NCBI GenBank assembly: GCA_964529745.1
Contig: CAZGZR010000002.1
Location: 1,682 to 65,681, forward strand
Origin: an uncultured Candidatus Bathyarchaeia archaeon
GTDB lineage: Archaea > Thermoproteota > Bathyarchaeia > TCS64
Direction of reading: 5' to 3'
Length of the DNA stretch: 64,000 nucleotides
This document shows, in pieces, positions 39,477 through 57,760 of this stretch. Made by a program: the position numbers and the translations under genes. Within the stretch, counting starts at the first letter, position 1. Each line of letters starts with the position of its first letter. The notes beneath the pieces were generated by a model. That model saw only the letters and a program-made list of their open reading frames with translations, had not been told where the DNA came from and searched no databases.

Positions 39477-39481
39477 ACCGT

Positions 39482-40642: not shown

Positions 40643-40781
40643 CTGTCTACTTCCTAAAAGGTACTATTTGAGAGCTAAGAGGATAAATATTATTCTATGA
40701 ATAGAAAATGTTACAATTTAAATTATAATTATATCCAGCAGTGAGCCAGAGTGTAACTAAATGGTTCAGTGTTTCATTTTG

Positions 40782-41006: not shown

Positions 41007-41099
41007 CAGCCGGCGGCCGGAGACACCAAACCACCGCAGGCGCAGCGTCGTTCCCCTACCTTTTTAATACTCTACCGCAATCACTGGTGGTAAGAGGAG

Positions 41100-42560
41100 T
41101 TGAAGATGACTGAGAAAGACCCCTCTGAGAGGAAGGAGCTGATCCCCAAGGAGAGCTTCAGCGAGTGGTACGACAACGTGCTCCTCGAAGCCAAGATAGC
41201 CGACGACAGGTACCCCGTCAAGGGGTTCACCGTCTACACGGGCTGGGGGTTCAGCGTGGCGAAACGCATCATAGCGATGCTGGAGGAAGGACTCGAAGAG
41301 AACGGCAACGAGCCGATGCAGTTTCCAGTCGTCATACCGGAGGACAGCTTCCAGAAGGAGGAGGACCACATCGAGGGGTTCGCCGGCGAGGTCTTCTGGA
41401 TCACCCACGCCGGCGAGAACGTGCTGGACCGCCGCCTCATATTGAGGCCGACGAGCGAGACGGCCATCTACCCCATGTTCAGGCTGTGGATAAGGAGCCA
41501 CCAGGACCTGCCGCTGAAGATGCATCAGACATGCAACGTCTACAGATACGAGACCAAGGCAACGCGACCCCTGTACCGTGGACGCGAGTTCCTGTGGAAC
41601 GAGGGCCACACAGCCCACGTGGACTATAGCGACGCCGAGGCCGAGGTCAGGAAGGCCGCAGACATCTATAGGAGCGTCTACGACAGGCTAGGACTCAGCT
41701 ACATCACCCTGAAGCGTCCCGACTTCGACAAGTTCGCGGGGGCCGACTACAGCATCGCTTTCGACACGTGGAACCCCGACGGCAAGGTCAACCAGATAGG
41801 CACCGTGCACCAGCTGGGCCACAATTTCGCGAAGGCCTTCGAGCTAACCTACGAGGACGAGGACGGGGAGCAGGCGTACGCTACGACGACGTGCTACGGC
41901 ATGGGGTTCGGCCGCACCCTGGCGGCGGTTATAGCCCACCACGGCGACGACCACGGCCTCGTGCTGCCCCCCAGCGTTGCCCCCAAGCAGATCGTGGTGA
42001 TACCCATACTGTTCAAGGGGAAGGAGGAGCAGGCCAACAGCTACGCTAGGGAGCTGTACGAGAGGCTCACAGAGGCGGGCGTCAGGGCGGTGCTGGACGA
42101 CGACTCCAGGTTCAACCCGGGGGACAAGTACTACAGGTGGGAGATGTACGGCGTCCCCTTGCGACTTGAGGTGGGGCCCAGGGAGGCCCGGGACAGGAAG
42201 GCCACCCTGGTGCGTAGGGACACGTTCGAGAAGACCGTCGTGGACGAGGCCGATCTAATCAATAGAGTGCATGAGCTGTTCGACACCATATTCAGGAACC
42301 TCAGGGACAGGGACCTGGCCAAGCTGGAGAGCCTCATAGTGGACGCCTACGACATGGACCAGCTCATGGTCTACATGGAGGCGCGGATGATCGTCAGGGT
42401 CAACTGGTGCGGCGACCCGGACTGCGCGTTCAACATCAAGGACACTGTGTCCGGCGAGGTCCGGGGGACCAGGTGGGACACGGAGGAGGAGCCAACGGGC
42501 GGCTGCATCATGTGCGGCGACCCGGCCAAGTACGTGGCCTACGTTAGCAGGACTTACTAG
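41100..42560 (+). CDS. proS: Proline--tRNA ligase (archaeal/eukaryotic-type class II ProRS)
   Basis: Motif 2 (YRYETKATRPLYRGREFLWNEGHTAH), motif 3, and a C-terminal Zn-binding domain ending ...VSRTY. Confidence 0.9.
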   Translation: MKMTEKDPSERKELIPKESFSEWYDNVLLEAKIADDRYPVKGFTVYTGWGFSVAKRIIAMLEEGLEENGNEPMQFPVVIPEDSFQKEEDHIEGFAGEVFWITHAGENVLDRRLILRPTSETAIYPMFRLWIRSHQDLPLKMHQTCNVYRYETKATRPLYRGREFLWNEGHTAHVDYSDAEAEVRKAADIYRSVYDRLGLSYITLKRPDFDKFAGADYSIAFDTWNPDGKVNQIGTVHQLGHNFAKAFELTYEDEDGEQAYATTTCYGMGFGRTLAAVIAHHGDDHGLVLPPSVAPKQIVVIPILFKGKEEQANSYARELYERLTEAGVRAVLDDDSRFNPGDKYYRWEMYGVPLRLEVGPREARDRKATLVRRDTFEKTVVDEADLINRVHELFDTIFRNLRDRDLAKLESLIVDAYDMDQLMVYMEARMIVRVNWCGDPDCAFNIKDTVSGEVRGTRWDTEEEPTGGCIMCGDPAKYVAYVSRTY

Positions 42561-43462
42561 ACCCTTATCTTCATGCCGTCGAACGCGTTCTCTTGGCTGG
42601 CGGCCTCCATCGTTTTCTTTTGGGGTTTCTTCGGGTCTAGCACGGGGTTAGTGTGGTTGAAGTGGGTGTAGATCACTCTCCCGATATCTATGTCGGGCAG
42701 CGTCTCAACTGCCTCCATCTGGGGGACGTGGCCCAGCTGGCGGCTGGTCACGGGGATGTCGCTTACCCTCTGCAGCTCGTCGTCCCACCAGAAGGTGGCA
42801 TCCACGAGGAACACGTCGCATCCCTCGATACGCGAGAGAACCGCTTCGTCCAGCAGCCCTATGTCCGGGGCGTAGACGAGTCTCCCGTCGCCGCTGCTGA
42901 TCTCGTAGGCGTAGGTGCTGCTGGGGTACCTTCTGCCGTTGGGGAGCACCTGGGTGTGGCTCACCTCGAAGCCCCTGATCTCCAAGCCGCCCAGCCGGGT
43001 CACGGTCTCACCCACGCCAAGCTTCACCGGCTTGACGTAGTCCCGGGCCAATCGGCCCAGCTCACCGAAGTAGTTGGGAGCTTCCTCGGAGCCGAACAGG
43101 AAGTCTATGAGGTCCGGCGACCCGTAGAGGGGCAGCTCGAAGCTCTTGCCTGTGCAGAACTCGGCGACGCCCACCGTGTGGTCGGCGTGGCCGTGGGTGA
43201 GGAACACGGAGTCCAGCCGGGACTCTCTGTGGGTTTCTCCCGCCTTGTCGGGCCGCGGCGTCAGGCCGTGGGTCTCCAGTTGGGTCTTCAAGTCGTGGCC
43301 AGCGTCCACCAGGACGTACCTGTCCCCGTCGAGGGTGACTGCTATCGAGGACCTTGTCCTCCTAATGGTGGGGTCTCTTCGAGCGGCCGTGCAGTTGGGG
43401 CACGCGCAGTCCCACTCGGGGACTCCCCCTATGGAGGCCGTGCCCAGCACCGTGATCTCCAT
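42557..43462 (-). CDS. MBL-fold metallo-hydrolase (PhnP/RNase Z-like)
   Basis: LTHGHADHTVG motif with CxxC near the N-terminus. The ATG at 43462 (MEITVLG) is preferred. Confidence 0.7.
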   Translation of the reverse strand: MEITVLGTASIGGVPEWDCACPNCTAARRDPTIRRTRSSIAVTLDGDRYVLVDAGHDLKTQLETHGLTPRPDKAGETHRESRLDSVFLTHGHADHTVGVAEFCTGKSFELPLYGSPDLIDFLFGSEEAPNYFGELGRLARDYVKPVKLGVGETVTRLGGLEIRGFEVSHTQVLPNGRRYPSSTYAYEISSGDGRLVYAPDIGLLDEAVLSRIEGCDVFLVDATFWWDDELQRVSDIPVTSRQLGHVPQMEAVETLPDIDIGRVIYTHFNHTNPVLDPKKPQKKTMEAASQENAFDGMKIRV

Positions 43463-43546
43463 GCCCTGAATACGAAGGCAGATGGTTTTAAGGGGTGCGG
43501 GTGGGCCGTGCCACCCTTTTTCAGTGAGGGCGGCGAACCCCATGTG

Positions 43547-44086
43547 ATGGAGGACGTCTACCGGCCCCGGGAGGACTCGTATCTCCTAGCTAGGCATGTG
43601 CAAGAGTTCGTCAGGGGGGAGGTGTTGGACATGGGTACAGGCTCAGGCATACAGGCCGTCGAGGCGGCCGAGAAGCCCGATGTGTCCCGGGTCGTCGCCG
43701 TGGACGTGAATCCCGTCGCCGTCGAATCGGCGAAAAGGCTCGCGGAGAGCAGGGGCGTGGCGGGCAAGATGATGTTCGTAGCCTCGGACCTCTTCGAGAA
43801 TGTCGAGGGCACGTATGACTGGATAGTCTTCAACCCGCCTTATCTCCCCGGCGAGTGTGGAGCCGACGATGCGTCGTGGGCTGGCGGCGAGACCGGCGGC
43901 GAGACTATAAGACGGTTCCTCCGCGAAGCCCAAGGCCACCTGAAGAAAAGTGGCTCCATACTCATGGTCTACAGCAGCCACACGGGCCTAACCGAGGCCG
44001 ATTTCGGTGGGTACAAGGTGGAGAAACTAGGCGAGATGCGTCTATTCTTTGAGACTCTTTCCTGTGTGGCGCTTACCCCATCTTAA
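43547..44086 (+). CDS. HemK/PrmC-like class I SAM-dependent methyltransferase (NPPY motif)
   Basis: DMGTGSGIQAV (motif I) and IVFNPPYLP (NPPY). Only the last 179 aa of the long 42653..44086 ORF are coding. Confidence 0.75.
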   Translation: MEDVYRPREDSYLLARHVQEFVRGEVLDMGTGSGIQAVEAAEKPDVSRVVAVDVNPVAVESAKRLAESRGVAGKMMFVASDLFENVEGTYDWIVFNPPYLPGECGADDASWAGGETGGETIRRFLREAQGHLKKSGSILMVYSSHTGLTEADFGGYKVEKLGEMRLFFETLSCVALTPS

Positions 44087-44396
44087 GGCCCATGCCGAAG
44101 CCCACTATGAAGCTGGCAGCGAAGGGAAGGTTGGCTATTATCGCCCGCAGCACACCCTCGGCGGCCACGGCTGAGCCCAGCGCGTTGGCACCCCACTCCT
44201 CCAATGCCCCGTAGTTGACGTCGATTATCCCCTGGTAAGCCAGATACTCTAGGCCGAGAAAGAAGAGGCCGATGATCACCGCCACCACCTTGGCCACCTT
44301 CTTCACGGCGTAGCCCACGCAGAGCCCCCCTATGCCGCCGACGCCGAGCTGGGCGACGAGGGGCGTCAATATGCTCGGTGTTTCGCTCATGGGCAA
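44073..44396 (-). CDS. Small membrane protein (FUN14-like)
   Basis: 107 aa, two or three Gly-rich TM segments. Confidence 0.4.
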   Translation of the reverse strand: MPMSETPSILTPLVAQLGVGGIGGLCVGYAVKKVAKVVAVIIGLFFLGLEYLAYQGIIDVNYGALEEWGANALGSAVAAEGVLRAIIANLPFAASFIVGFGMGLKMG

Positions 44397-44432
44397 TCAT
44401 ATGGTATGCCTGGTTATAAAACTGGTATGTTG

Positions 44433-45377
44433 TCAGGGGACTATGTGGGTGCCTGTGCCGCCGTCGAGGGCGCCGGCGGCCTTGTCCAGGCTCGTTATTA
44501 TGGCCCTTTCGCCGCCTCTCTCGACGAAGCCCATTGCCGCCTCGACTTTGGGGCCCATGCTGCCGGCCTTGAAGTGGCCTTCGCCCAGGTACTTCTTGGC
44601 CTCGGCTACGGTCATCTTATCTATGGGGACCTCGTGGGCTGTTCCGAAGTTCAGGAGGGCGTGCTCCACGTCTGTGAGTATGAGGAACATGTCGGCGTCC
44701 AGCTCCTCGGCCAGCTTGGCGCCGGCGCGGTCCTTGTCTATCACGGCGTCTACCCCCTCCAGCTTGCCTTCGCCGTTCCTGATTACGGGGATGCCGCCGC
44801 CCCCGGAGGCGATGACTATAGTGCCGCTCTCCACCAGCCTCTTTATGACGCTGGCCTCGGCTATCCCTAGTGGTATGGGGGAGGGAACCACTCTGCGCCA
44901 CGTCTTATCGCCTGTCGGCCTCACCTGCTTCACTATCCACCCGTTCTCGGCGCCGAGCCGCTTGGCGGTCTCCTCGTCGTAGTAGGGGCCCACTGGCTTG
45001 GTGGGGTCCTGGAAGTCTGGGTCGTCACGGCTCACGACCACCTGGGTCACAACCGTCACCACCTCCTTCCCGTCTTGGACCAGCAGGTTGTCCAGGCATT
45101 GCTGCATCATGTACCCTATCTGGCCCTGGGTCATGGCGCCCAGCACCACAAGGGGCTGCTCGGGCACCATGTGGGCGCCCTGCTCCTGCTGGATCGCCAG
45201 GTTGCCCACCTGGGGGCCGTTGCCGTGGGTTATGGCTATTTCGTAGCCGTTGCGCGCTATGGCTGCTATCTGGACGGCGGCGGTCTCGACGTTCCTCATC
45301 TGCTCCTCGAACGTCCCCCTCTCGTGGGGCTGCTTGATGGCGTTGCCGCCTAGAGCGATCATGACCTTCTTACCCAA
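44433..45377 (-). CDS. arcC: Carbamate kinase
   Basis: MGKKVMIALGGNAI...ITHGNGPQVG; 314 aa AAK-fold. Confidence 0.85.
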   Translation of the reverse strand: MGKKVMIALGGNAIKQPHERGTFEEQMRNVETAAVQIAAIARNGYEIAITHGNGPQVGNLAIQQEQGAHMVPEQPLVVLGAMTQGQIGYMMQQCLDNLLVQDGKEVVTVVTQVVVSRDDPDFQDPTKPVGPYYDEETAKRLGAENGWIVKQVRPTGDKTWRRVVPSPIPLGIAEASVIKRLVESGTIVIASGGGGIPVIRNGEGKLEGVDAVIDKDRAGAKLAEELDADMFLILTDVEHALLNFGTAHEVPIDKMTVAEAKKYLGEGHFKAGSMGPKVEAAMGFVERGGERAIITSLDKAAGALDGGTGTHIVP

Positions 45378-45513
45378 AACGGTTAACCTCAGTGAAGGGT
45401 TAAACAGGGCGCGTTACTTCTTAAAACAGTTATCCCCTCTGGAACATTTTCACGCGTTTTTGTGTCAAAAAGGCTCAGTCCATGTTAAATCATCGTAGAA
45501 CGAAGTATCATCG

Positions 45514-46983
45514 GTGTACCTATTGGGAAAGGTTTTCCCCGACGGGTTCCTCTGGGGCACAGCCATCTCGTCGTTCCAGGCGGAGATGGGGGCGGGCGAG
45601 CCGAGCGACGGCACCGACTGGTGGGCGTGGGTCCACGACGAGACCAACGCCTCCGTAGGGAGGGTGAGCGGGGACACGCCCCTCGACGGCCCGGGGTTCT
45701 GGGAGTGTTACGACGACTACCTCAGGCTAGCCAGCGAAGACCTCGGGAACAACTCGATAAGGCTGGCGGTTGACTGGGGCAGGGTGTTCCCTGATTCCAC
45801 CGAGTCAGTCGAGGCGGATGTGAAGAGGGACCGGTGGGGCAACGTATGGAAAGTGGATCTGGAGGACGACGACGTGGATGCCCTAGATCGGCTGGCCGAC
45901 GGCGACGCCATGAAAAGGTATAGGGAGATACTGGAGAGCGTTCACGGCCATGGGTTGACGCCCATGCTCACCCTCTACCACTGGCCCATACCCCTGTGGC
46001 TCCACGACCCCATAGCCTGTCGAGACGACATGGACTCCACAGACAAACGGGGGTGGATAAGCCAGAACACCATAGTCGAGTTCGCGAAGCTCACAGCGTA
46101 CCTACCCCACAATCTAGGGGACTTGGTAGACCTATACTGCACAGTGAACGAGCCCCGGATAATCAGCGAGCACGGCTACCTCACCAGGCGAGGCGAGTTC
46201 CCTCCGGGCCTCAACGACCCCTCCCTTTTCCTCGCCTGCCTAAAAAACACGTGCATAGCCCACGGCATCGCCTACGAGCAGGTAAAGCGCTGGGACAGGC
46301 GAAAAGCGTTTCCCTTGGGGCCTTCGACGGTTGGGCTTGTGGCTGTTCTCCAGCACTACGAGCCAGCCGACCCGGGTAACCCAGACGACGTGTGGATGAG
46401 CCGGTACATCGACTACGCGTTCAACGAGTGGAACCTCAACGCCGTGTTCCACGGCGACTACGACATGAACATGAACCAGGTGGTGGAGCCATGGGAGCAG
46501 CTACCCCATCAGGTCAAAGGATGCGACTACTTGGGCGTAAACTACTACGCCAGGTGGAGGGTAAGGCACAGGAATACGGGGTTAAACCCGCTCCTGGACT
46601 ACGAGTTCGCGCCGTGCAGCGGCGACTGCTCCGACTACGGCTGGGACATACACCCAGAGGGGCTTCGAAACTTGCTCAGGTGGGCGTACAGGAGGTACAG
46701 GCGCCCCATCTACGTAACGGAGAACGGTGTAGCCGACAAGGAGGATACGATGCGGACTAGGTACCTCAGAAGCCACTTGGAGGAGCTATACAAGGCCATA
46801 TCCATCGACTGTGTCCCGGTCAGGGGCTACTACTACTGGACGCTGATGGACAACTTTGAGTGGAGCGACGGGTACAAGATCAGGTTCGGCCTCTACAGCG
46901 TGGACAGGGAGACCAAGAAACATAATCCAACCAAGGCGGTGCAGGCTTACCGGGAGATCGCGGAGAGGAACAGCCTGCCGTGA
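45514..46983 (+). CDS. Glycoside hydrolase family 1 beta-glycosidase (beta-glucosidase/galactosidase)
   Basis: LTLYHWPIPLWLHD, TVNEP (acid/base Glu), YVTENG (nucleophile Glu), 489 aa. Confidence 0.85.
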   Translation: MYLLGKVFPDGFLWGTAISSFQAEMGAGEPSDGTDWWAWVHDETNASVGRVSGDTPLDGPGFWECYDDYLRLASEDLGNNSIRLAVDWGRVFPDSTESVEADVKRDRWGNVWKVDLEDDDVDALDRLADGDAMKRYREILESVHGHGLTPMLTLYHWPIPLWLHDPIACRDDMDSTDKRGWISQNTIVEFAKLTAYLPHNLGDLVDLYCTVNEPRIISEHGYLTRRGEFPPGLNDPSLFLACLKNTCIAHGIAYEQVKRWDRRKAFPLGPSTVGLVAVLQHYEPADPGNPDDVWMSRYIDYAFNEWNLNAVFHGDYDMNMNQVVEPWEQLPHQVKGCDYLGVNYYARWRVRHRNTGLNPLLDYEFAPCSGDCSDYGWDIHPEGLRNLLRWAYRRYRRPIYVTENGVADKEDTMRTRYLRSHLEELYKAISIDCVPVRGYYYWTLMDNFEWSDGYKIRFGLYSVDRETKKHNPTKAVQAYREIAERNSLP

Positions 46984-47057
46984 GCCAATGGGCAGTCTAG
47001 GAAAGGATAATATAGGGGGGCTCGTATACACTCAGAGCCCCCAGGGGAAGAGTGAAA

Positions 47058-47222
47058 ATGTCGCTGAGAGACCCAGTGAAGATCGAGATCGCGAGAGAGC
47101 ACCGCGTCAAGAAGTCGGTGTGCAGGAACTGCGGAGCCACCAACCCGCCCAACGCCACCAAGTGCCGCAAGTGCCACAGCAAGAACCTCCGCCCCAAGAG
47201 GACCAAAGGCAAGGGCAGGTAG
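47058..47222 (+). CDS. rpl40e: 50S ribosomal protein L40e
   Basis: 54-aa ORF below the ORF-track cutoff: [54 protein letters not shown], a C4 zinc ribbon. GGTGA-like SD upstream. Terminator-like hairpin at 47015-47041. Confidence 0.8.
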
Positions 47223-47223
47223 C

Positions 47224-47679
47224 CTACTCGACTAGGTCGAAGCTGACCTCAAGCAGCTGCTTACTGTTTCTGTAACGAGCCTTGGAGATGGCCAGCACTC
47301 CTATGGCGCCGGTCGAGGGTGTGTGCTCCTTGTTGCACGCGTTGACGTTCCAGCCGGGGAGATGGAATATCTGCAGCTCGGTTATGTGCTCGGGGAGTGG
47401 GAAGAGGTCGTATATGAGGTCGCTCCAGCGCGCCTCGGCGTCGGGCCTGCTCATCACATGGACCTCGACCGGCTGATCCTCCCTGATCTTCAGGTTTGCC
47501 AGCCGTTCTATCTCGCTGACCTCGTCGTCCGTGGGCTTGCGGTTGAACTGGACGGTTATCCTGCCGTGGTTTCCGTTCGCTGAGACCCCGGCTGTCCACT
47601 TGGCGTCGTCGCCCAGCACCTTCACTATGGCGCCCTTGACCACGTGCAGCGCGGTGTGTGTCCTCGTCTCAACGCTCAT
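47224..47679 (-). CDS. alaX: AlaX-S-type alanyl-tRNA editing protein
   Basis: HTALHVV (HxxxH) and CNKEH (CxxxH) zinc motifs of the AlaRS editing domain, 151 aa. Confidence 0.75.
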   Translation of the reverse strand: MSVETRTHTALHVVKGAIVKVLGDDAKWTAGVSANGNHGRITVQFNRKPTDDEVSEIERLANLKIREDQPVEVHVMSRPDAEARWSDLIYDLFPLPEHITELQIFHLPGWNVNACNKEHTPSTGAIGVLAISKARYRNSKQLLEVSFDLVE

Positions 47680-47745
47680 GGGGGGAATATTTGGGGCGAC
47701 CGCTCATAAAACATGTGGGCCGCTGGCGCAGCCCGGACAGGTCTG

Positions 47746-49473
47746 TCACCATCCGAGGGCGTAGGGCTCGCCCGTTCTGGGCGACGCGCCGCCGAACATG
47801 ACCCCGAGGTCGGGGCAGATTCTTATGGCAAGGCATCTACCGTGGCTCCACGGCGGGCTGACCACTATCCTGTGGCCCTTCTCCTCCAGCCCCTTGACTA
47901 CGTCGCCGGGTATCCTAGGCTCGACGGCGACCTCCCCCGGCTTCACTGTGTGGGGCCAGAAGCTGGCTGGGAAGTGGTTCGTGTGCACCGTGGGCGCGTC
48001 CAGTGCCTTCTGGACGTTCATCCCGAACTCGAGGTGGTTGAGGAAAAACTGGAGGGTCCACTGGTCCTGCCTGTCCCCGCCGGGAGTGCCGAACGCCATG
48101 TACTGCCGCCCGTCCCTCAACGCGAGGCTCGGCGTCAACGTGGTGCTCGGCTTCTTACCCGGCTCCAGGCACTCGACGTGGCCCGGGTCCAGGTGGAAGA
48201 ACTGTCCCCTGGTCCCCAGAGGGAAGCCAAGGCCCGGCACCAGCGGGCTTGCCCTTATCCAGCCGCCGCTGGGCGTGGCCGCCAGCATGTTGCCGTCCCG
48301 GTCCACGGCGTCCAGGTGCACGGTGTCGCCCTCGAAACCAGACCTCTCGCTCCTCTCCTCCAGCTCTATGGGCTCGACGCCGCCTGGCCTGAACAGCATG
48401 GATGCCTTATCAGGGTCCACCAGCTTGCGGCGCTTCGCGGCGTACTCCTTGGACAGCAGCATCCCGAGGGGCACGACCACGTAGTCGGGGTCCGCGTAGT
48501 ACTGCTCCCTGTCGGCGAAAGCCAGCTTGGCGCACTCGATCCACGTGTGAAGGTACTCAACGGTGTTGTGGCCCATGTCTCTGAGGTCGTAGCCTTCGAG
48601 GAGGTTGAGCTGCTGGAGAAACACGGGGCCCTGGCACCAGGGGCCGCACTTGTAGACGTCGATGCCTCTGTAGTTGACGGTGACGGGCTCCTCGAAGCGG
48701 GCATGGTAGCGCTGGAAGTCCTCCAACGTTATGAGGCCGTGGTTCTCCTTGCCGTACACGTCTCTGCACCTGAAGCTCTGGGTGAACTCCACGATGGCCC
48801 GGGCTATGGGGCCGTCGTAGAAGTGTTTCCGTGCGGCGTCGATGCCCGCCGACCTGGAGCCGGCCCTGGACTCTATCTCCGCGACCTCCTTGAACGTGCT
48901 GTACCAGCCGGGGTTCCGCAGCAGCTGGCCGATCCTCGGAACCTCGCCGCCAGGGAGGTAGGTCTCGGCCGACGCCGGCCACTCCGAAAGGAACCTGTCT
49001 TTGGCCCTCTCAAGAAAGGCCTTCAGCGTGGGGTAGACGGGGAAGCCTTCCCTGGCGATGCGCAGCGCGGGCTCCATGACCCGCCCCAGCGTGAATGTGC
49101 CGTACTCCTCCAGCGTCATGAGCCAAGCGTCGAAGGCGCCCGGCACCACGGCCGGGGTGAACCCGTCCTCAGGGATCATGGGGTACCCCTGCTCGAGGAA
49201 CCAGTCTATGGTGGCGTCCATGGGCGCCGGCCCCTGACCGTTCACGGCGACCACCTTCTCCTCGTCGGCCCAGTAGAGCAGTATGGGGACCTCACCCGCC
49301 GGCCCCACGAGTTGGGGCTTCAGAAGCGTGAGGCAGAACCACATGGTGGCCCCAGCATCCACGACGTTGCCCCCGTCCTGAAGCGCCTTGAGCCCGGCCA
49401 CGGACGCAAGGTAGTGGGTGCTGGTGACCATTCCGTTGGCCCCCATGACCACGGGCCTGGTAGTGAATGACAT
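47746..49473 (-). CDS. ggt: Gamma-glutamyltransferase
   Basis: 575 aa. Autoprocessing/nucleophile region GDTVHLDAVDRDGNMLAATPSGG. Confidence 0.85.
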   Translation of the reverse strand: MSFTTRPVVMGANGMVTSTHYLASVAGLKALQDGGNVVDAGATMWFCLTLLKPQLVGPAGEVPILLYWADEEKVVAVNGQGPAPMDATIDWFLEQGYPMIPEDGFTPAVVPGAFDAWLMTLEEYGTFTLGRVMEPALRIAREGFPVYPTLKAFLERAKDRFLSEWPASAETYLPGGEVPRIGQLLRNPGWYSTFKEVAEIESRAGSRSAGIDAARKHFYDGPIARAIVEFTQSFRCRDVYGKENHGLITLEDFQRYHARFEEPVTVNYRGIDVYKCGPWCQGPVFLQQLNLLEGYDLRDMGHNTVEYLHTWIECAKLAFADREQYYADPDYVVVPLGMLLSKEYAAKRRKLVDPDKASMLFRPGGVEPIELEERSERSGFEGDTVHLDAVDRDGNMLAATPSGGWIRASPLVPGLGFPLGTRGQFFHLDPGHVECLEPGKKPSTTLTPSLALRDGRQYMAFGTPGGDRQDQWTLQFFLNHLEFGMNVQKALDAPTVHTNHFPASFWPHTVKPGEVAVEPRIPGDVVKGLEEKGHRIVVSPPWSHGRCLAIRICPDLGVMFGGASPRTGEPYALGW

Positions 49474-49551
49474 GGTTAATGGTTGCCACAGCGGATATTA
49501 GAAGCTTCCATGAATCCGAAAAAAGCCTGAAGGAGTGAGGCTAGAAAAGGG

Positions 49552-51408
49552 TCAGCGTCTCAGCGGCTCCAGGGCCGCGTCCACGTTCGGGAGCCCCAGC
49601 TTGTTCAGCTCCTCCGACGTGGGTATGCCCTTCTCGTCCCACCCCATCTCCGCGTAGGCCACCTTTCTCTGCTCCATGAGCTCAGCCCTGTTGGGCGCGA
49701 GCCCCTCGTAGGGCCCGCTTGGGAGAGGCTCATACCACCGCTCGGGGTTGTCGTCGTCCTCTAGGGGGTCCCAGTGTACGTCGGGGCCCCCCAGCAGTAG
49801 GGCGGCCCTCTGGATCTGGATTATCCGCCTGCCGTTGACGTTCATCCAGTCCTCCTGGGTCATCTCCCAGCCCGTCACGGCCTTCATGTATCTCCAGACG
49901 AGGTCGGGAGCCGACCTAGGCATCCCCATTGAGCAGATGACCATGGTGTCCCCCAAGACGCTCCTAGCCTCGCTCAGGGGCGGCCTCGGTATCGAGGTGT
50001 GGTCTCCCCCCTGAACAGAGAGGGCGTACCCCAGGTATGGGAAGTGTTTCCCGGTCCTTATGCCGTGGGCCCCGACCTCGATGCCCTTGAACTGGACGGC
50101 GTACTTCATCACGTCCACACCCTTCATATCCGAGATGACCTTGGCGGCCCTGTACGTGCCCTCAGCCAATACATCCCCTATGGCACGCCTCTCTGCGATG
50201 AGCCTGGCCAGCTCACCCATGGCCTCGGCGTCCCCCCAAACCGGCTTTATCCTGTCGAAGTCCTCCTCGGTGAGTATCCCCCTCTGGTACAGCTCGGCGG
50301 CGAACCCCATGGTGTTGGCGCTGTTGATGCCGCTGAGGCCCAGATCGTCTACTACGGTCGCGACGTGGATCACGCCGTCGGTGTCGAATATCCCCAGGTT
50401 GGTCCCGCAGTACGCCTCAAGCTCGTAGTCTGGGTTGTCGGTTATGTCGCCCTTGAAGGGGCCGGTCTTCACCACGGCCAGCTTCATGCACGCCCTGGTG
50501 CAGCCGTAATCGCTCCAGCACCGCTTCACCCAGTTCCTGGTCTCGAAGTTGATCACGCCTATGCTCTTCTCGTCGTGCCACTCGTCCTGCCAGTTCCTAA
50601 CGGGCTCGGCCGATCTGTCTGCTCCTGTGGAGTAGCCTGAGGCTCCTGTCCCCCAGAGGTTTCTCTGAGGATTGGCGAACCCCGCCTCCTTGGTCGCCTC
50701 CCAGAGCTCCTGCATCATCTCGGGGTGGGCTACGGCTGGCTGGGGGCCCGTGCCCTTGGCGGCTATGGCCTTCAGGTTCTTAGAGCCCATGACCGCCCCG
50801 TATCCGCCGTAACCGCAGGCGTGGGACCACTTCTGCATTATGGCCGTGTTCCTCACCAGGTTCTCCCCGGCCGGGCCGATGTATAAGATGCCGGGCTCCT
50901 TCCAGAGCCCGTACTCCGGCCTCCGCTCCTTGAGGAGGGCCCTCACCTCGTCGTTCAGGGCCATCACCGTCTCCTTCCCTTCGAGCCCCCAGAGCCCTGA
51001 GGCGTCCCTCACCTCTACCTGCCCGTCCGTCACGAGTATGTAGACGGGGGCCTCGGATCTCCCCTTCACGATGAGGCCGTCGTAGCCGGTGCACTTCAGC
51101 TCCATGGCGAACTCGCCGCCCGCGGTGGAGCCCACGATGCCGTTGGAGAGCGGGGACTTCCCGGAGACGCATATCCTGGCGCCCGTGATGTAGCCCGTCA
51201 GGGGCCCGGTGAGCACCGTCATGATGTTCTCGGAGCCGAGGGGGTCCACCTCCGCCCACCTGCTCCCGAGCCTGTCCCAGAGTATCCTCGTCGCCAGGCC
51301 CCGGCCCCCCACGTATTTCCTGAGGGTCTCCTCGTCGGGGTAATAGTCGGTGGCATCGCCGGTGGCGAGGTCGATCTCGGCGATCCTGCCGTTGTACCCG
51401 GGGATCAC
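49552..51408 (-). CDS. Tungsten-containing aldehyde:ferredoxin oxidoreductase family protein
   Basis: 618 aa AOR N- and C-terminal domains. Confidence 0.85.
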   Translation of the reverse strand: MIPGYNGRIAEIDLATGDATDYYPDEETLRKYVGGRGLATRILWDRLGSRWAEVDPLGSENIMTVLTGPLTGYITGARICVSGKSPLSNGIVGSTAGGEFAMELKCTGYDGLIVKGRSEAPVYILVTDGQVEVRDASGLWGLEGKETVMALNDEVRALLKERRPEYGLWKEPGILYIGPAGENLVRNTAIMQKWSHACGYGGYGAVMGSKNLKAIAAKGTGPQPAVAHPEMMQELWEATKEAGFANPQRNLWGTGASGYSTGADRSAEPVRNWQDEWHDEKSIGVINFETRNWVKRCWSDYGCTRACMKLAVVKTGPFKGDITDNPDYELEAYCGTNLGIFDTDGVIHVATVVDDLGLSGINSANTMGFAAELYQRGILTEEDFDRIKPVWGDAEAMGELARLIAERRAIGDVLAEGTYRAAKVISDMKGVDVMKYAVQFKGIEVGAHGIRTGKHFPYLGYALSVQGGDHTSIPRPPLSEARSVLGDTMVICSMGMPRSAPDLVWRYMKAVTGWEMTQEDWMNVNGRRIIQIQRAALLLGGPDVHWDPLEDDDNPERWYEPLPSGPYEGLAPNRAELMEQRKVAYAEMGWDEKGIPTSEELNKLGLPNVDAALEPLRR

Positions 51409-51944
51409 TTGTATAGCTCCTCCCCTTTCTCGCCGTAGAGGTTGACCACCAGGTTTCTGGTGATGTCCTCGGGCTTTATAGCGTACAGGTCATAGTTCTT
51501 TGACGATGTCCTTGTCCCCACGGAGAGGGCTCCGTAACCCGCCTCGACGCACACCTTGGCGCACTCGGGGTCGCCGCCGCAGAGGTCGCATATGACGACG
51601 CGGCCCCCCTCGGGGTGGAGGTGGGGCACCTCGCCGGGGCACGCCTGGATGCAGGCGCCGCAGGTGACGCATTTCTCATCGTCCACGATGACGGCCCCCG
51701 TATCGTCGTCCACCGAGAGGGCGTCCACGGGGCAGCTCGATACGCAGGGGTAGTCGCTGCACTGGGTGCACAGGTGGGGGGCCTCGGCTCCGGGTACCAG
51801 CATGAACACGCGTACCCTGGACGCCTCCGGCCACACACGGCCCTCGTGTTTCATGCTGCAGGCGATCTCGCAGAGCCTGCATCCGCTGCACTTCATGTAG
51901 TCTCTGATCACCCACGGCTTCATTACCGGCACGGGTCTACTCAA
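51405..51944 (-). CDS. 4Fe-4S (poly)ferredoxin, AOR-associated electron-transfer subunit
   Basis: Four CxxCxxCxxxCP-like clusters. 4-nt overlap with the AOR gene. Confidence 0.7.
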   Translation of the reverse strand: MSRPVPVMKPWVIRDYMKCSGCRLCEIACSMKHEGRVWPEASRVRVFMLVPGAEAPHLCTQCSDYPCVSSCPVDALSVDDDTGAVIVDDEKCVTCGACIQACPGEVPHLHPEGGRVVICDLCGGDPECAKVCVEAGYGALSVGTRTSSKNYDLYAIKPEDITRNLVVNLYGEKGEELYK

Positions 51945-52064
51945 TATGATTCACAAGGGCTTTCGGAATCTTCATACAATAAATGGTTTTCGAGTGGATA
52001 GGTTTGTATCGCTGCCAGAAAAACAGTTATCCTGTGCGATCCATTTGGGGTGGGTGACTGAGCG

Positions 52065-52803: not shown

Positions 52804-52881
52804 GGGCCCGTAGCTCAGCACGGATAGAGCACAGCCCTCCTAAGGCTGGGGTCGAGGGTTCGAATCCCCCCGGGCCCGCCA
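52804..52881 (+). tRNA. tRNA-Arg (anticodon CCT), CCA encoded
   Basis: GGGCCCG-TA-GCTC-AGCACGGATA-GAGC-A-CAGCC-CTCCTAA-GGCTG-GGGTC-GAGGG-TTCGAAT-CCCCC-CGGGCCC-G-CCA. Acceptor and anticodon stems are perfect. Confidence 0.8.
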
Positions 52882-52882
52882 C
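52856..52882 (+). repeat. attL (within the tRNA-Arg 3' end)
   Basis: Exact 27-nt match to 57477-57503. Confidence 0.85.
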
Positions 52883-52898: not shown

Positions 52899-54047
52899 TT
52901 ATTTGAGTTTACGATACAGATGCAGGTCATCGAACTCATCGACCTTGTTGAAACCTGCTTCTAGTAGAGATATGGCCTCTTCATGCGTCTTGGCTACCTT
53001 CACGGTGAAATTGTTTTCATCGTGGAACATGGCTTCCGATAGCTGTATGTATTTCAGAGTATGGTTTATCGTCTTGTGACCTAGGAACTGCTGAACATAC
53101 ACGATATCTTTTGTTTGATGATAGAGCATTGTGGCCTTCCAGTGTCGGAACGTATGGAATGTTATTTTCTTTATCCTGTTGTTCTGGAGTTTGTACGCTG
53201 CGCGTTTTCTAGCACGTAAAACGTTCCTGTTTAGCGTCTTCTTTGTCTTTGCGTACAGCTTGTTTGTACCATGTTTTCTCTTGGCTTCGAGAAGCATGTT
53301 GATACATCGGTGAGTTATCTTCGTTATTCGTGGGTTGCTTCCTTTTTCTGGACTAATCCGAATCGTGTTAGACTCCAGATCAATGTCATCCCATGTACCA
53401 TCAAGAGCTTCGCCTTTCCTCAAAGCCGTCTCTTTGGCCAATTGAAGAATAGCTGCTTCCTCTATGTTACAATTCGCAATCAGATTATCAATTTCTGATT
53501 CAGTTGGGATAAATGGAAAAGTTTGTTTCTCTGTGAACTTTGGTTTTTCCCATTCCATTCCCATCATTGACAGAAAATCTGTGTATGTGTCGCATGCTCT
53601 GTTCTTGCTCTTCCCAACCCATTTCTGCTCAGCTATCTTTAACTTCACTGATTCAGGGTCAAGAAGAATTGCTCCTCTTTTCGCTAGTACCTTTATGTGT
53701 CGATGTCTGCGTTCAATTGTTGGCTCTGCGAGTCCACGTTTTTTCATGTGAAATATGAACTCTAGAAGCAGTTTTTCCGTGTCTGAGATATTCCCCGTAG
53801 CTCCTACTTTAGTTGTAGCTACGATCAAGTTTTTCGACTCCTTAGAGATGTCGCCTACTTGACAACCAATACTCTGATTCTGGGCTGATATATTTTCTGC
53901 GATGAACTTTCTACCACAGATATTACAGCTTCGACGCTGATAGATCTTATCTTTCCTCGTTATTTTTCCTTCTTTATGGTTTTCAGTACTTCCACATCTA
54001 GGACTAACTAATCTTGCGCTTTCACCTCCTTCAACCTCTTTCAACAT
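52899..54047 (-). CDS. Tyrosine recombinase/integrase (intact, pNOB8-type arrangement next to att), N-terminal Zn-finger-like region
   Basis: Box I (ALRKGEALDGTWDDIDL), box II (HTFRHWKATML), catalytic Tyr (HTLKYIQL). CGS...CNICGRKF at the N-terminus. Confidence 0.85.
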   Translation of the reverse strand: MLKEVEGGESARLVSPRCGSTENHKEGKITRKDKIYQRRSCNICGRKFIAENISAQNQSIGCQVGDISKESKNLIVATTKVGATGNISDTEKLLLEFIFHMKKRGLAEPTIERRHRHIKVLAKRGAILLDPESVKLKIAEQKWVGKSKNRACDTYTDFLSMMGMEWEKPKFTEKQTFPFIPTESEIDNLIANCNIEEAAILQLAKETALRKGEALDGTWDDIDLESNTIRISPEKGSNPRITKITHRCINMLLEAKRKHGTNKLYAKTKKTLNRNVLRARKRAAYKLQNNRIKKITFHTFRHWKATMLYHQTKDIVYVQQFLGHKTINHTLKYIQLSEAMFHDENNFTVKVAKTHEEAISLLEAGFNKVDEFDDLHLYRKLK

Positions 54048-54058: not shown

Positions 54059-54544
54059 TTAATCAGGTAATGTTTCGGATATGGCCTGAACGATCCTTTT
54101 AGCCAGCTCCAGCTCTTTCGAAAGTCTTTCCCTGTAAGTAGCCACATTAGATAGTTCCTCAATAAAATTAGTCAGTATCTTATCAGGTGGAAATAGGCTA
54201 GTTGGATCATACCGGGATAGATCAGTATCTTCTTCATCTGTCCATGTATTGTAGATAAGCCCAGAAGGAAGATAGTATGTTTCCATTGTGGCTAGAATGT
54301 TATCAGCTATGATACTTGTTTCTTCGATTTTCACTTTGAAGTTGTGTTTCTTCATTAGGGGAAGCATGGTTTTTAGAAGCTCGGAGTATTGTTTTCTCAG
54401 TGTTTCGTCGTCTGCTTCATTGGGTTCGAAGGTGTATCCTATGAGGACGTTTTCTGTGATTTCGGATAGGTTTAACCCCATCTCTTTGGCTTTTTGAACC
54501 GCTTCTTTATTTACACTCAGGTTCAACCTCTGTTTCTCAGACAT
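54059..54544 (-). CDS. Ribbon-helix-helix (CopG/Arc-like) N-terminal domain protein with C-terminal extension
   Basis: MSEKQRLNLSVNKEAVQKAKEMGLNLSEITENVL is a typical RHH beta-alpha-alpha. Confidence 0.5.
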   Translation of the reverse strand: MSEKQRLNLSVNKEAVQKAKEMGLNLSEITENVLIGYTFEPNEADDETLRKQYSELLKTMLPLMKKHNFKVKIEETSIIADNILATMETYYLPSGLIYNTWTDEEDTDLSRYDPTSLFPPDKILTNFIEELSNVATYRERLSKELELAKRIVQAISETLPD

Positions 54545-54633: not shown

Positions 54634-54757
54634 GCCGTATATTAATGCCGTTTCCTATTGCCGTATGTTAATGCCGTTTCCTATTGCCGTATATTAATGC
54701 CGTTTCCTGATGCCGTATATTAATGCCGTTTCCTGATGCCGCATATTAATGCCGTTT
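54634..54757. repeat. 4.7 tandem copies of a 26-bp iteron (gccgtatattaatgccgtttcctatt), putative replication origin/Rep binding array
   Basis: Seen directly in the sequence. Copies differ at 1-2 positions. There are no spacers, so it is not CRISPR. Confidence 0.8.
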
Positions 54758-55113
54758 TTTTATATAAACTGATTTTGAAAAAATGACTTACGTATCAAAA
54801 AATGTGAACATAAAAGATATAAATAAGATAAATACAATATTAAATGAGAAGCGCTTTCTCCACAGAAGGATAAAATAGGTTTTAGCCCCCACGCCAGGGG
54901 GAGAAACCTAGGTCTTTCCGCCCCTTCTGTGTATTATTCAATTATATATTAATTTTTATATAAATTCATCATTCGATTTTACTTTTATTAAGATACTGTC
55001 TATGTATATTGTGCATGTATTTTTTTCTCATTAACAAGTTTGAATTAGTCATATTATTATCAAGTCGTGGCGGGTTGGCGCTTCGCGCCTTCCCCGCCAA
55101 TCCATTAGAGATT

Positions 55114-55986
55114 TCATTCAACAGTATGTTTCAACAATATTGCCCAAGGAGATACTCCATACTGAATAATTTCAATATTGGCTATAAATGTAGCACCTAT
55201 TTCCTTTTTATCTGGATTGGTATTTCTTCTTGAAAAATTCAAATATGATGTTTTTACTAAATCTTCATTTGCTTTTCCTAATACATGTATTTCAAAATAT
55301 GAAAATACATTAATATCCCTCTCCTCTATCATCGTCTTTATTTCATCATCATATATTAGATTCAGTATTCTTTCATTATGGTCAGTACTATATATAAATT
55401 CACTATCATGCTCATCAATAAATAATATAAATCTGCCATTTATTGTATTTTCCTTTTTATTATCAAATTTCCACTGTCTTAAATATGATGCATTGAAATC
55501 AACATCTAAATGTTCTTCTTTTAATGGTGCCACCTTAGATAATTCTTTTATTGTATATGCCTTTGCAGAATAAAAATACATTCTTGATCCATCCCAACAT
55601 TTTATTCCTCTTTCGAGATATTCATTTATTTCGCTTGGATTTTTTAAGGAATTTGATATCAACATACCCGAATTAATGTTTTGTAATAAATAATCTGATT
55701 CATGTGCTCTTGCTTCAGCGATATCATCTAATAAATCTGTAATATCTGAACCTGTAAAATTACCTCTTTTAATACTAAGCGCAATATTACCATCAGGGGA
55801 AAAAATAGGTTTTTTTAAAACACATTTATATTTTAATGATGGAGGTTCCCCAATAAAATTAATTATTTTATCAATGCTTGGTTGGATAACATTTTCCCTA
55901 ATCACCTGATAACCTAATAATTCTAAAAGTTTTTTAATTTGATATTCTGCTGTTGAACCAATCATTGGTGCCAGGTGACCTGACAA
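55114..55986 (-). CDS. Hypothetical protein (AT-rich cargo; possible nuclease-like)
   Basis: 290 aa with no confident motif. A possible D..(D/Q)xK patch is HLDVDFNASYLRQWK. Confidence 0.45.
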   Translation of the reverse strand: MSGHLAPMIGSTAEYQIKKLLELLGYQVIRENVIQPSIDKIINFIGEPPSLKYKCVLKKPIFSPDGNIALSIKRGNFTGSDITDLLDDIAEARAHESDYLLQNINSGMLISNSLKNPSEINEYLERGIKCWDGSRMYFYSAKAYTIKELSKVAPLKEEHLDVDFNASYLRQWKFDNKKENTINGRFILFIDEHDSEFIYSTDHNERILNLIYDDEIKTMIEERDINVFSYFEIHVLGKANEDLVKTSYLNFSRRNTNPDKKEIGATFIANIEIIQYGVSPWAILLKHTVE

Positions 55987-55991
55987 ATTTG

Positions 55992-56447
55992 TTATCCCTC
56001 ATCGGGAATTCTAATGTAATGATATCTTCCTTCCCTTTCTATTCTCCTCAATACTCCTCTTTGGACTAGTCTTCTCAGATAAACACCAATAGCACCAGCT
56101 GAATCAGGAACAGCATTTATTTCAAGTGCTCTAGCTACTTCTGCCGAAGATCTTGGAGTTCTACCCCAATCTGTATCGAATAAAGATTGAATATTGGATA
56201 TTGTACTCCTTTGAACTCTAATAACTGGAACCTCAGATGTCGGAGCTTCTAAGATTTCTTCTTCAGTAGGTGTTTCAATATCAACCCTTTCGCCTTCTCC
56301 TAAAATTTCATTTACTTCATCTATGAATTCCTTAATCTGTTCAAGATTCGTTCTTAAAAATTCAAGGCTACCTGTTACAGATAATTCGTAAGTGTTACCT
56401 TTTATTTTAAAATGAAATTCCTGAGATTCGTCTTCTGTCATTCCCAT
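55992..56447 (-). CDS. Hypothetical protein with C-terminal winged-helix DNA-binding domain
   Basis: C-terminus AEVARALEINAVPDSAGAIGVYLRRLVQRGVLRRIEREGRYHYIRIP resembles a wHTH. Confidence 0.5.
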   Translation of the reverse strand: MGMTEDESQEFHFKIKGNTYELSVTGSLEFLRTNLEQIKEFIDEVNEILGEGERVDIETPTEEEILEAPTSEVPVIRVQRSTISNIQSLFDTDWGRTPRSSAEVARALEINAVPDSAGAIGVYLRRLVQRGVLRRIEREGRYHYIRIPDEG

Positions 56448-56452
56448 ATTTA

Positions 56453-57397
56453 CTATAAAGCTTTATAGAATGTAAAATATTCGGATGAATGGATTTTCCA
56501 AAAATCGTTATAAGATAACTCAACACTCCAAGAGACATATTTTCCGTTAATATCAGCCCAGAACCCGACAAGATACCACTTGTATATCGAGTTACCTTCA
56601 AGATCCACCTGACCACGAGGACTATCATCCTTCTCCTCAACAAGAAACAACCCAAAACCCTTCGAAACAGAAAAAGCCCGCTTACGGAAAATCCACATCA
56701 AAGCAAGAGATAAGACCATATTACGATTCCGCTTCTCAGTCAACAACGCATTATTCACCTTAGTAACATACTTCAACACATAACCCACACCAGCACCAAG
56801 ACTGTACAACCCGAACACGTCACTAAAGCCCCACTTCCAATAACTCGTGAGTAACGCCTTCTCCTTGATCCTCCACTTCCCATTATAGAAGAAAGTCTCA
56901 AACTCAGTTTCACGAAAAAGAGCTATACAATGAATATGCGGATAACCATCACGCTGAGCCTCCCACACACGAATAAGATCAAATTTACCATACCTCCTCT
57001 GTATACCTGATCTTGTCCTGTTGAATAATTTCCCAATCTCTTCCCAAGCCTGATCGAGACTCATCTTCCTCCTAAATGTGAAAGTAATGAACAATGCTCT
57101 CGTTTTCTGTATCTTGTTCCGATCCTTAGGATTGAAGAACTCGATATTCGGTAAATTCAATAAATGTTTTAACCGCTTACCTAGTTTCCAAGCATAAACA
57201 TCGTTACCACGTTTCGCGGCCTTAACCGCCTTGTACTCTTTCTCATAAGTGTGTATATTCTCTTTTCTGAATATCAAATACTCAACATATTTTGACCACT
57301 CGATGAAATACTCGATTATCTGATCCAAATCCGGATTCGAATGTCCAAGTAATGATTTATACCACCCAAGTCTGGGTTTAGGTTTTTTAAATGACAT
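56453..57397 (-). CDS. HUH-superfamily rolling-circle replication initiator (phiX174 gpA-like, two-Tyr motif III)
   Basis: Motif I FITFTF, motif II HIHCIALF (HUH), motif III GVGYVLKYVTK (YxxKYxxK as in the phiX174 A protein). Confidence 0.75.
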   Translation of the reverse strand: MSFKKPKPRLGWYKSLLGHSNPDLDQIIEYFIEWSKYVEYLIFRKENIHTYEKEYKAVKAAKRGNDVYAWKLGKRLKHLLNLPNIEFFNPKDRNKIQKTRALFITFTFRRKMSLDQAWEEIGKLFNRTRSGIQRRYGKFDLIRVWEAQRDGYPHIHCIALFRETEFETFFYNGKWRIKEKALLTSYWKWGFSDVFGLYSLGAGVGYVLKYVTKVNNALLTEKRNRNMVLSLALMWIFRKRAFSVSKGFGLFLVEEKDDSPRGQVDLEGNSIYKWYLVGFWADINGKYVSWSVELSYNDFWKIHSSEYFTFYKAL

Positions 57398-57476
57398 AAA
57401 ACAGGCATTGAGCCTGTCCTAGATTGTGGATGAAAAAAAGAAGGAAAGTACACGGTGAATATCTCCATGTCGGGAA

Positions 57477-57503
57477 GGGTTCGAATCCCCCCGGGCCCGC
57501 CAC
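57477..57503 (+). repeat. attR (duplicated tRNA-Arg 3' end)
   Basis: Exact 27-nt copy of 52856-52882. The upstream gtcg also matches. Confidence 0.85.
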
Positions 57504-57734
57504 CTTGACAAGCGAATACCTTGTCTTTTTTACCTTCTTTGACTGGGACCGGCGAGAATTGAACTTACGAATAAACGCACGCTTAGCGAGTGTGATTTGT
57601 GCTTGAAATCCGTGTGGGGTCCCACCCCACGCACCATGTTTTGGTAACAGTGGGCAGTAACTTTAGGCCTTTTTTTCGTATCTATTTTTTAATGGTATGG
57701 TCTTGGGGGAGATAGTAATATCATCCTTTATGTA

Positions 57735-57760
57735 GGGTCCGAATCCCCCGTGCCCGCCAC
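57735..57760 (+). repeat. Decayed third copy of the tRNA-Arg att core (gggtccgaatcccccgtgcccgccac; 3 differences)
   Basis: Compared directly with attL/attR. Confidence 0.4.

Follow-up and report, generated by a model that had tools for sequence, protein, structure and literature searches.

A rare two-gene cassette with a remote Mrr-like nuclease domain on a tRNA-integrated element of a Bathyarchaeia archaeon

Mrr (EcoKMrr) and the Mrr_cat family (PF04471) are type IV modification-dependent restriction endonucleases. Here, we describe a pair of open reading frames (ORFs), ORF151 and ORF290, named after the lengths of their products in amino acids (aa), which are carried by a small tRNA-integrated element in a 64,000-nucleotide (nt) stretch of DNA from an uncultured Candidatus Bathyarchaeia archaeon (GenBank contig CAZGZR010000002.1, positions 1,682 to 65,681; the whole stretch is referred to as the window). 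None of Pfam, NCBIfam, PHROGs and PADLOC contains the cassette, yet it can be tied to the Mrr lineage through the N-terminal domain of ORF290. The two share the α-β-β-β-α-β core, site residues in register and a non-acidic residue two positions before the lysine; both systems include a DNA-binding winged helix, and no methyltransferase gene adjoins the pair in the window. The differences are that ORF290 stays below the Pfam threshold, its relatives reaching at most ~20 bits, that it has Ser-x-Lys where Mrr has Gln-x-Lys, that an additional 25 residues separate its strands 2 and 3, and that it carries an extra C-terminal domain of 140 residues without a known fold match. Moreover, the winged helix is here a separate protein, ORF151, with an N-terminal domain of its own.

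Other described systems resemble the pair in particular features. Winged-helix fusion endonucleases (DpnI, HhiV4I and relatives) join a winged-helix reader to a PD-(D/E)xK nuclease, mostly occur without a methyltransferase and have been proposed to be type IV enzymes (PMC11037411). They share with our pair the stand-alone combination of a winged helix with this nuclease fold, but theirs is fused in one polypeptide whose winged helix reads N6-methyladenine, whereas here two genes are involved. The AbiE system (AbiEi/AbiEii) and type II toxin-antitoxin modules are likewise bicistronic and located on mobile elements, with the winged-helix gene first and an effector of ~290 aa second, and weak AbiEi_4 matches occur among the relatives of ORF151; however, ORF290 has a restriction-endonuclease fold instead of a nucleotidyltransferase fold, and no AbiEii or PADLOC match was found. 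As in the DUF4297-HerA and Sir2-HerA systems (PMC11291478, PMC11472057), a gene for a PD-(D/E)xK-type nuclease stands beside a HerA ATPase gene in four of the 12 genomic contexts considered below, although these contexts pair HerA with NurA, as in archaeal end resection, and the window has no HerA.

Fold and putative active site of ORF290

The AlphaFold2 model of ORF290, built on an eight-sequence alignment, consists of two domains (predicted local distance difference test, pLDDT, 86.9; predicted template modelling score 0.85). The first domain (residues 1-150, positions 55537-55986, minus strand; pLDDT 87) has the topology α1-β1-β2-β3-α2-β4-α3-β5-α4, which includes the canonical α-β-β-β-α-β core (helix 7-23, strands 26-30, 40-44 and 67-73, helix 79-93 and strand 104-111). 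D39 and K73 occupy the positions expected for PD-(D/E)xK enzymes, at the start of strand 2 and as the xK of strand 3, respectively. To compare this domain with Mrr, an alignment of 11 catalytic domains was used, comprising that of E. coli K-12 Mrr and ten plasmid-borne Mrr-type domains. The ORF290 family was represented in the profile scans and residue counts by 38 sequences, including 15 cluster representatives of clade A, to which the window protein belongs. In hhalign, the N-terminal domain of the family matched the Mrr domains with a probability of 92.2% (E 5.7e-7, score 43.9, 101 columns), while 60 column shuffles scored 17.4 (1.4%) at most, the reversed profile reached 0.1% and the C-terminal domain 0.2%.

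Searches of the family libraries pointed in the same direction at sub-threshold level. Seven matches to families of the PD-(D/E)xK clan of Pfam were detected among the 38 relatives (Mrr_cat in three, NA-iREase1 in two, UPF0102 and NucS_C in one each). The best of the three Mrr_cat matches had E 5.8e-4, and the one printed score, 18.2 bits, is below the 21-bit threshold of PF04471; the window protein itself gave no Mrr_cat match at E<=1. With Foldseek, phage models annotated as 'restriction endonuclease' or containing an Mrr domain were recovered from BFVD with probabilities of 0.96-1.00 but E values of only 0.01-0.06, in alignments of ~150 columns with a root-mean-square deviation of 4.5-5.5 Å. 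The corresponding PDB matches of ORF290 were weak (EcoO109I, probability 0.80; AF1548/1y88, probability 0.57), and the whole model had nothing in the PDB at E<=1e-3. Profile searches of the PDB sequences with the 8- and 38-member alignments likewise returned nothing related. The N-terminal domain is a remote homologue of the Mrr catalytic domain in the PD-(D/E)xK superfamily, lying outside Mrr_cat by the curated threshold.

Two candidates obtained along the way were set aside. The top whole-model PDB matches (acetyl-CoA carboxylase and hexokinase) had root-mean-square deviations of 13-22 Å and are meaningless, and a match to Avs3, considered as evidence for the nuclease domain, recurred with the C-terminal domain alone and was dropped.

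The hhalign register also defines a putative active site. E14 corresponds to the Glu of the Mrr 'FE' motif, D39 to the Asp of 'GGID', S71-I-K73 to 'Q-A-K' and D81 to the Glu of 'RPE', a position held by Glu or Asp in 7 of the 11 Mrr sequences. In the model, helix 1 bears E14, D39 is located at strand 2, S71-x-K73 belongs to strand 3 and helix 2 has D81 at its start, and all five residues (E14, D39, S71, K73 and D81) are kept in 15 of 15 clade-A representatives. A first-pass annotation of the window, prepared from the sequence without database searches, had guessed at a PD-(D/E)xK nuclease on the strength of a weak D...QxK patch in a 290-aa protein of no recognisable family. The protein indeed belongs to no catalogued family (Pfam, NCBIfam, PHROGs, PADLOC), and the guess is supported for the N-terminal half by AlphaFold2, Foldseek and hhalign, while the C-terminal domain remained without a match. 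The proposed motif, in turn, gives way to the residues of the Mrr register, the sole QxK strings of the protein (Q17-I-K19 and Q171-W-K173) being located outside β-strand 3.

Outside clade A, the residues of this site are distributed differently. The sister clade has Glu at position 71 (21 of 38 sequences overall), and eight members with Glu71 have neither Lys nor Arg at position 73; in six of these eight, Lys is found at position 81. In active sites of the Cfr10I/NgoMIV type ('PD-XXK-E') and the COG4636 type ('PD-EXX-K'), a carboxylate or lysine has been documented to move between strand 3 and an adjacent helix (PMC551604). Such variants would be resembled by clade A, with a non-acidic residue at the (D/E) position and a conserved carboxylate, D81, in the next helix, and by the sister clade, with Glu at 71 and Lys at 81 when K73 is lost; however, these are unrelated families, and the spatial equivalence of D81 or K81 is putative. 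We read the pattern at positions 71, 73 and 81 as evidence that a working site is probably being conserved, with the caveat that the apparent migration involves few events, which follow the clades.

Longer forms of the protein also exist. A TARA Oceans contig (L019, positions 1884-3344) encodes a 486-aa variant with ~180 additional C-terminal residues and no winged-helix gene upstream, and in several long forms the classical site residues are degenerate (N or L at 71, R or Q at 73).

The second domain (residues 151-290, positions 55117-55536, minus strand) was predicted confidently when modelled alone (pLDDT 91.9) and has the order β-β-β-α-β-α-β-β-α. Foldseek found no neighbour for it in the PDB (best E 0.018, template modelling score at most 0.37), and in hhalign it showed no profile similarity to the N-terminal domain (0.1%) or to Mrr (0.2%). 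An internal duplication of ORF290 was rejected on the same 0.1% comparison of the two domains. To see in the β-β-β-α-β-α part an RNase-H-like or a second restriction-endonuclease-like fold is only a guess.

The family is very small and extremely rare. Only eight close homologues (45-100% identity, E 1e-72 to 1e-185) were found in 5.8 billion clustered proteins, and scanning 1.84 billion representatives exhaustively with HMMER yielded 49 clusters at 50% identity; the named sources are metagenome-assembled genomes of Bathyarchaeia and 'Nitrososphaerota'. Searches with PADLOC (PADLOC-DB v2) gave no match among the five proteins of the element and one weak NsnC match among the 38 relatives of ORF290. 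PADLOC, which the first-pass annotation had suggested running on the element, thus recognised no known defence system in the element or in the family representatives. Toxin domains (AbiEii nucleotidyltransferase, ParE, PIN) were not detected in ORF290 by Pfam, NCBIfam or PADLOC.

The winged-helix partner and the mobility of the pair

ORF290 (55114-55986, minus strand) starts with TTG and ORF151 (55992-56447, minus strand) with ATG. The two co-oriented genes of the first-pass annotation were confirmed, both having homologues; the spacer between them is 5 nt (55987-55991) instead of the 6 nt given there. The Rep gene upstream is also separated from ORF151 by 5 nt, and therefore the three genes form one operon with the pair as its distal part. 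The TTG start of ORF290 is preceded by a GAGGG motif 8-12 nt upstream and is also backed by residues 2-8 (SGHLAPM), which are conserved among the homologues; the NCBI call begins at Met8 and gives 283 aa. Both ORFs are real genes and not chance reading frames.

ORF151 is composed of an N-terminal domain of ~45 aa, an acidic, Pro-rich linker (~50-78) and a C-terminal winged helix-turn-helix (~85-148). Among the 29 homologues, conservation is concentrated in the C-terminal 70-80 residues, which include an invariant block. The winged helix, which had been noticed from the sequence, was borne out by the family: the BlaI/MecI-type winged helix Penicillinase_R is matched by 24 of 28 members (best E 1.2e-6) and AbiEi_4 weakly by 11 of 28, others matching LexA, HTH_20 or MarR_2, while the window protein itself scores under the Pfam cutoffs. 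No family was found for the N-terminal ~45 residues and the linker. DacZ_A matches of the relatives were discarded as uninformative, since they span the linker and the winged helix and not the N-terminal domain. An ordinary partition or PlrA-like role, named in the first-pass annotation as the alternative to an enzyme, received no support from Pfam, NCBIfam or PHROGs, in which neither ORF151 nor ORF290 matched a partition or maintenance domain (NTPase, ParB, PlrA).

The base composition of the pair differs from that of the genes that carry it. The GC content of ORF151 and ORF290 is 36% and 28%, with 19% and 16% at third codon positions (GC3), while Rep, the integrase and ORF161 of the element have a GC content of 39-41% and a GC3 of 44%, 42% and 41%, respectively. 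The pair is therefore far more AT-rich than its carrier genes and not merely 'element-like' in composition, as had been supposed. The same contrast is seen in the related loci L002 and L003; overall, the GC3 of the pair is 13-20% versus 42-44% for Rep and integrase, and the composition of the pair is foreign to every host seen. The cassette therefore has its own history and was acquired by the plasmid.

Another important question is whether the pair occurs apart from this element. A local hidden Markov model scan of all fetched loci (designated by L numbers) revealed 12 distinct contexts with a clade-A homologue of ORF290, and in all 12 a homologue of ORF151 is located directly upstream on the same strand. 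The two genes are spaced by -11 to +72 nt; when only the ten intact contexts are considered, the upper value falls to +18 nt and the lower one stays at -11 nt. In four contexts, the genes overlap by 4 nt. The earlier idea of cargo is upheld by the ten of 12 contexts in which the pair is found without Rep or integrase; Rep accompanies it in two contexts (the window and L001/2), and an integrase is present in the window only. In L003-5, the pair is alone in a 1.6-kb AT-rich islet adjoining tRNA-Val(GAC). Thus, the pair is a mobile cassette, carried as plasmid cargo and occurring independently of Rep and integrase.

Its neighbours include several genes of the defence type. In L014-16, the pair is found beside SIR2-like, PDC-S64-like, AbiEi_2, PIN and MT-A70+DpnI genes, and in L006 and L008 beside ParE pairs. 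EVE/PUA-like domains are modified-base readers that are often tied to type IV restriction, and in the sister element L001/L002, likewise at tRNA-Arg(CCT), an EVE-domain gene (L002 2547-3044; 26.8 bits, cutoff 23) directly follows the pair. An extra HTH_24 gene precedes the pair in overlapping register in L002 and L020. A distant ORF151 paralogue of 133-136 aa, built like ORF151 from a small N-terminal domain and a winged helix, is always found between the pair and the NurA-HerA operon where the latter is present (L006 5625-6026, L010 ~5450-5851, L012 5500-5904 and L023 4577-4987; ORF151 profile E 1e-4 to 1e-6), the orientation in L023 being different. The PADLOC HerA models gave only partial matches.

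Decayed copies were also identified. In L010/11, the effector is reduced to a 116-aa stump while the winged-helix gene is kept, and L017/22 combines a frameshift with a truncated partner. A search for an operator palindrome common to the upstream sequences of the stand-alone pairs gave inconsistent results.

Possible functions of the pair

These data raise the question of what the pair does. We propose that it is a mobile nuclease-based conflict cassette, of either a restriction-like or a toxin-antitoxin-like kind, and tentatively give the restriction-like version a probability of roughly 0.45. The nuclease activity, its substrate, an effect of ORF151 on ORF290 and a role in defence are inferred, as is the division of the pair into a regulator and an effector suggested by the first-pass annotation. 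ORF290 would be the effector, a DNA endonuclease cutting through an Mrr-type site, and its N-terminal domain would descend from the catalytic domain of the type IV enzyme Mrr with the complete Mrr-style site kept; the C-terminal domain probably serves for oligomerisation, partner binding or control. ORF151, produced from the same transcript just upstream and often with a stop/start overlap, may be translationally coupled to ORF290; it would bind DNA via its winged helix and direct the nuclease, control it or repress the operon. Most likely, the cassette would serve both the element and its host by excluding incoming DNA, or defending against it, in a restriction-like manner. The decay of the copies in L010/11 and L017/22 is as expected of dispensable conflict genes, and the absence of an adjacent methyltransferase in the window is in line with a type IV-like enzyme that acts alone (cf. 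PMC11037411). The restriction-like version is favoured because of the Mrr ancestry, this absence, the defence-type neighbours and the established type IV architecture of a winged helix plus a nuclease (PMC11037411).

Several observations weigh against this proposal. ORF290 itself matches no model in Pfam or PADLOC, nor in NCBIfam or PHROGs, and clade A taken alone reaches an hhalign probability of only 39% against Mrr (E 3e-4), in the same register. Its position 71 is Ser and not Glu or Gln, Gln being present in 11 of 11 Mrr sequences; the classical site residues vary over the wider family, with K73 in 25 of 38; and the proximity of D81 to the site is presumed. The residues that are truly invariant, or nearly so, are found outside the classical site, at the domain boundary and in the C-terminal domain (W131 and K142 in 38 of 38, E157 and F189 in 37 of 38, H234 in 34 of 38); the conserved function may therefore centre elsewhere, and it is mainly for this reason that a purely 'classical' nuclease reading calls for caution. 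Inactive restriction-endonuclease folds exist, as in NA-iREase1, and NA-iREase1 matches occur among the ORF290 relatives. The winged helix of ORF151 showed no specific similarity to the N-terminal domain of Mrr (Mrr_N), and a strict 'split Mrr' reading is therefore unsupported. No relative was found on IMG/VR viral contigs or PLSDB plasmids, the INPHARED phages having been searched for Rep only. Finally, NurA-HerA adjoins the pair in four of the 12 contexts (L006, L010, L012 and L023), which could point to DNA repair.

The order of the genes, with a small DNA-binding protein first and an effector second and with 4-nt overlaps in four contexts, is also that of a toxin-antitoxin or addiction module. 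ORF290 would then be a nuclease toxin, and ORF151 would be the labile antitoxin that neutralises it through the N-terminal domain and acidic linker and represses its own operon by binding the operator through the winged helix; cells losing the plasmid would be killed, and in chromosomes the pair would persist as a selfish one. The persistence of the pair alone in the L003 islet after the rest of the element has gone, the ParE toxin-antitoxin pairs among its neighbours and the weak matches of 11 of 28 ORF151 relatives to the AbiEi antitoxin winged helix are consistent with this explanation, as is the order of decay in L010/11, where the effector is cut to 116 aa and the winged-helix gene stays. 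However, in L017/22 both genes are damaged, and an effector of 290 aa with two domains is larger than type II toxins typically are. The sequences upstream of the pair share no consistent operator palindrome; in the window, the pair has no separate promoter region and shares its transcript with Rep, an awkward arrangement for autoregulation, and no PADLOC or toxin-antitoxin family was matched. On balance, we consider an addiction module unlikely, though worth serious consideration.

The four contexts with NurA-HerA and the ORF151 paralogue, including L023, in which the genes are rearranged yet adjacent, raise another possibility: an accessory factor of cellular DNA repair or recombination, in which a structure- or damage-directed nuclease and its DNA-binding partner would act together with NurA-HerA end resection and the plasmid would have acquired the pair secondarily. 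HerA is known to partner nucleases in both repair and defence (PMC12977600, PMC11291478). However, the window element and seven other contexts have no NurA-HerA, and three of the four contexts that do are from closely related genomes (a neighbouring protein is 88% identical), so that few independent events are represented. The rarity of the family (49 clusters in 1.84 billion) and its decayed copies are also unfit for a housekeeping role in repair, and the composition is foreign to every host seen. We therefore rate a repair function as distinctly improbable.

It is equally a long shot that the pair is the founding member of a two-component system for immunity or exclusion in archaea that no catalogue lists. 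In it, an Mrr-derived nuclease, governed through its new C-terminal domain with the only invariant residues of the family (W131, K142, E157, F189 and H234), and the dedicated winged-helix partner would cooperate with NurA-HerA against foreign DNA in Bathyarchaeia, as an archaeal counterpart of the bacterial nuclease-HerA complexes.

The carrier element and the significance of the family

The element that carries the pair is 4.6 kb long and is integrated into tRNA-Arg(CCT) (gene at 52804-52881). It is bounded by an exact 28-nt direct repeat, the first copy of which is the 3' end of the tRNA (attL, 52855-52882, plus strand) and the second a perfect copy of it (attR, 57476-57503, plus strand); the GC content between the repeats is 36.7%, compared with ~62% on the left host flank. 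Its five genes are all encoded by the minus strand. The first operon gene (56453-57397) encodes an HUH-type rolling-circle Rep (PF23343 REP_ORF2-G2P, 2.5e-14, 53.8 bits, cutoff 27.8), close relatives of which were not found in PLSDB plasmids or INPHARED phages. An intact gene for a XerA-like tyrosine integrase (52899-54047) lies inside the element and adjoins attL (Pfam Phage_integrase 5.6e-22; NCBIfam XerA_Arch 3.9e-27, below cutoff). Small tRNA-integrated elements that encode a tyrosine integrase, winged-helix proteins, cargo of hypothetical proteins and a replication protein, which in one case is a rolling-circle Rep, have been described in Thaumarchaeota as cryptic integrated elements (PMC6563490); ours is a carrier of the same kind, but the ORF151/ORF290 pair is not described there. 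The Logan contig L018 represents the same integrated copy and not a free circular form.

Between ORF161 and ORF290, a 569-nt intergenic region contains two non-coding features. One is an iteron array (54634-54757) with 4.8 copies of a 26-nt unit (94% matches, score 206), which consists of two alternating 13-mers, GCCGTATATTAAT and GCCGTTTCCTAAT; the array may serve as an origin of replication or for the binding of a protein, and its pattern is absent from the other ORF151/ORF290 loci. The other is a nested GC-rich hairpin (55069-55098, minus strand), located 14 nt past the ORF290 stop, with a predicted stability of -23.7 kcal/mol (z -3.2) that was equalled by 0 of 200 shuffles; it has no T-run and may mark the end of the operon or be an element of a rolling-circle origin. 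That ORF290 has a restriction-endonuclease fold that has lost its activity and now serves to bind DNA or to assemble, and that together with ORF151 it controls copy number, resolution or segregation, for example via the 26-nt iterons, is very improbable: co-transcription with Rep, the array 357 nt downstream of the pair, Ser at position 71 in place of the second acidic or Gln residue and the weak NA-iREase1 matches agree with it, but ten of the 12 contexts have no Rep, integrase or iterons, clade A retains E14, D39, K73 and D81 without exception, neither an NTPase motif nor a partition-family match was found in ORF290, and the composition of the pair is unlike that of the replication and integration genes.

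The remaining gene, ORF161 (54059-54544, minus strand; 161 aa), has a CcdA-like ribbon-helix-helix N-terminus (PF07362 CcdA, 2e-7, 31.7 bits, cutoff 22.4, residues 4-36) and no CcdB-like partner; it is located 11 nt upstream of the integrase gene and may therefore be an excision or regulatory factor. Beyond attR, by 257 nt, a degenerate third copy of the tRNA-Arg 3' end (71%, 57733-57760) is probably a remnant left by a previous integration into the same tRNA.

A second AT-rich islet of the window (29383-31938, GC 26-40%) adjoins tRNA-Leu (31932-32017, minus strand). Copies of the tRNA 3' end flank it (31939-31955 is identical to 31760-31776, and 29366-29382 is a 76% copy), its three minus-strand ORFs (92, 187 and 220 aa) match no Pfam family, and an integrase is lacking; the islet has the appearance of an integrated element in decay. 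Rfam matches were limited to the two tRNAs. The GC content of the window is mixed beyond both islets as well, with stretches of 40-49% beside others of 52-66% (1001-19000 versus 32001-52000), which could result from large islands or from a chimeric assembly.

Both the fold class and the likely role of the pair are familiar in type, while the family itself is uncatalogued, structurally novel in part and clearly mobile. If the pair is a toxin-antitoxin module or a repair factor instead of a restriction-like cassette, the family is still new, with a narrower significance. Systems of defence and addiction have been charted much less in archaea than in bacteria, and small integrated plasmids probably harbour many of them. 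The unusual site, with Ser-x-Lys and a downstream Asp, and the apparent residue migration in the sister clade would, if the enzyme is active, make the family a compact test case for the plasticity of PD-(D/E)xK active sites. An active pair would also add a split two-gene architecture to the repertoire of type IV-like restriction and would provide a marker for mobile islets in Bathyarchaeia-type genomes.

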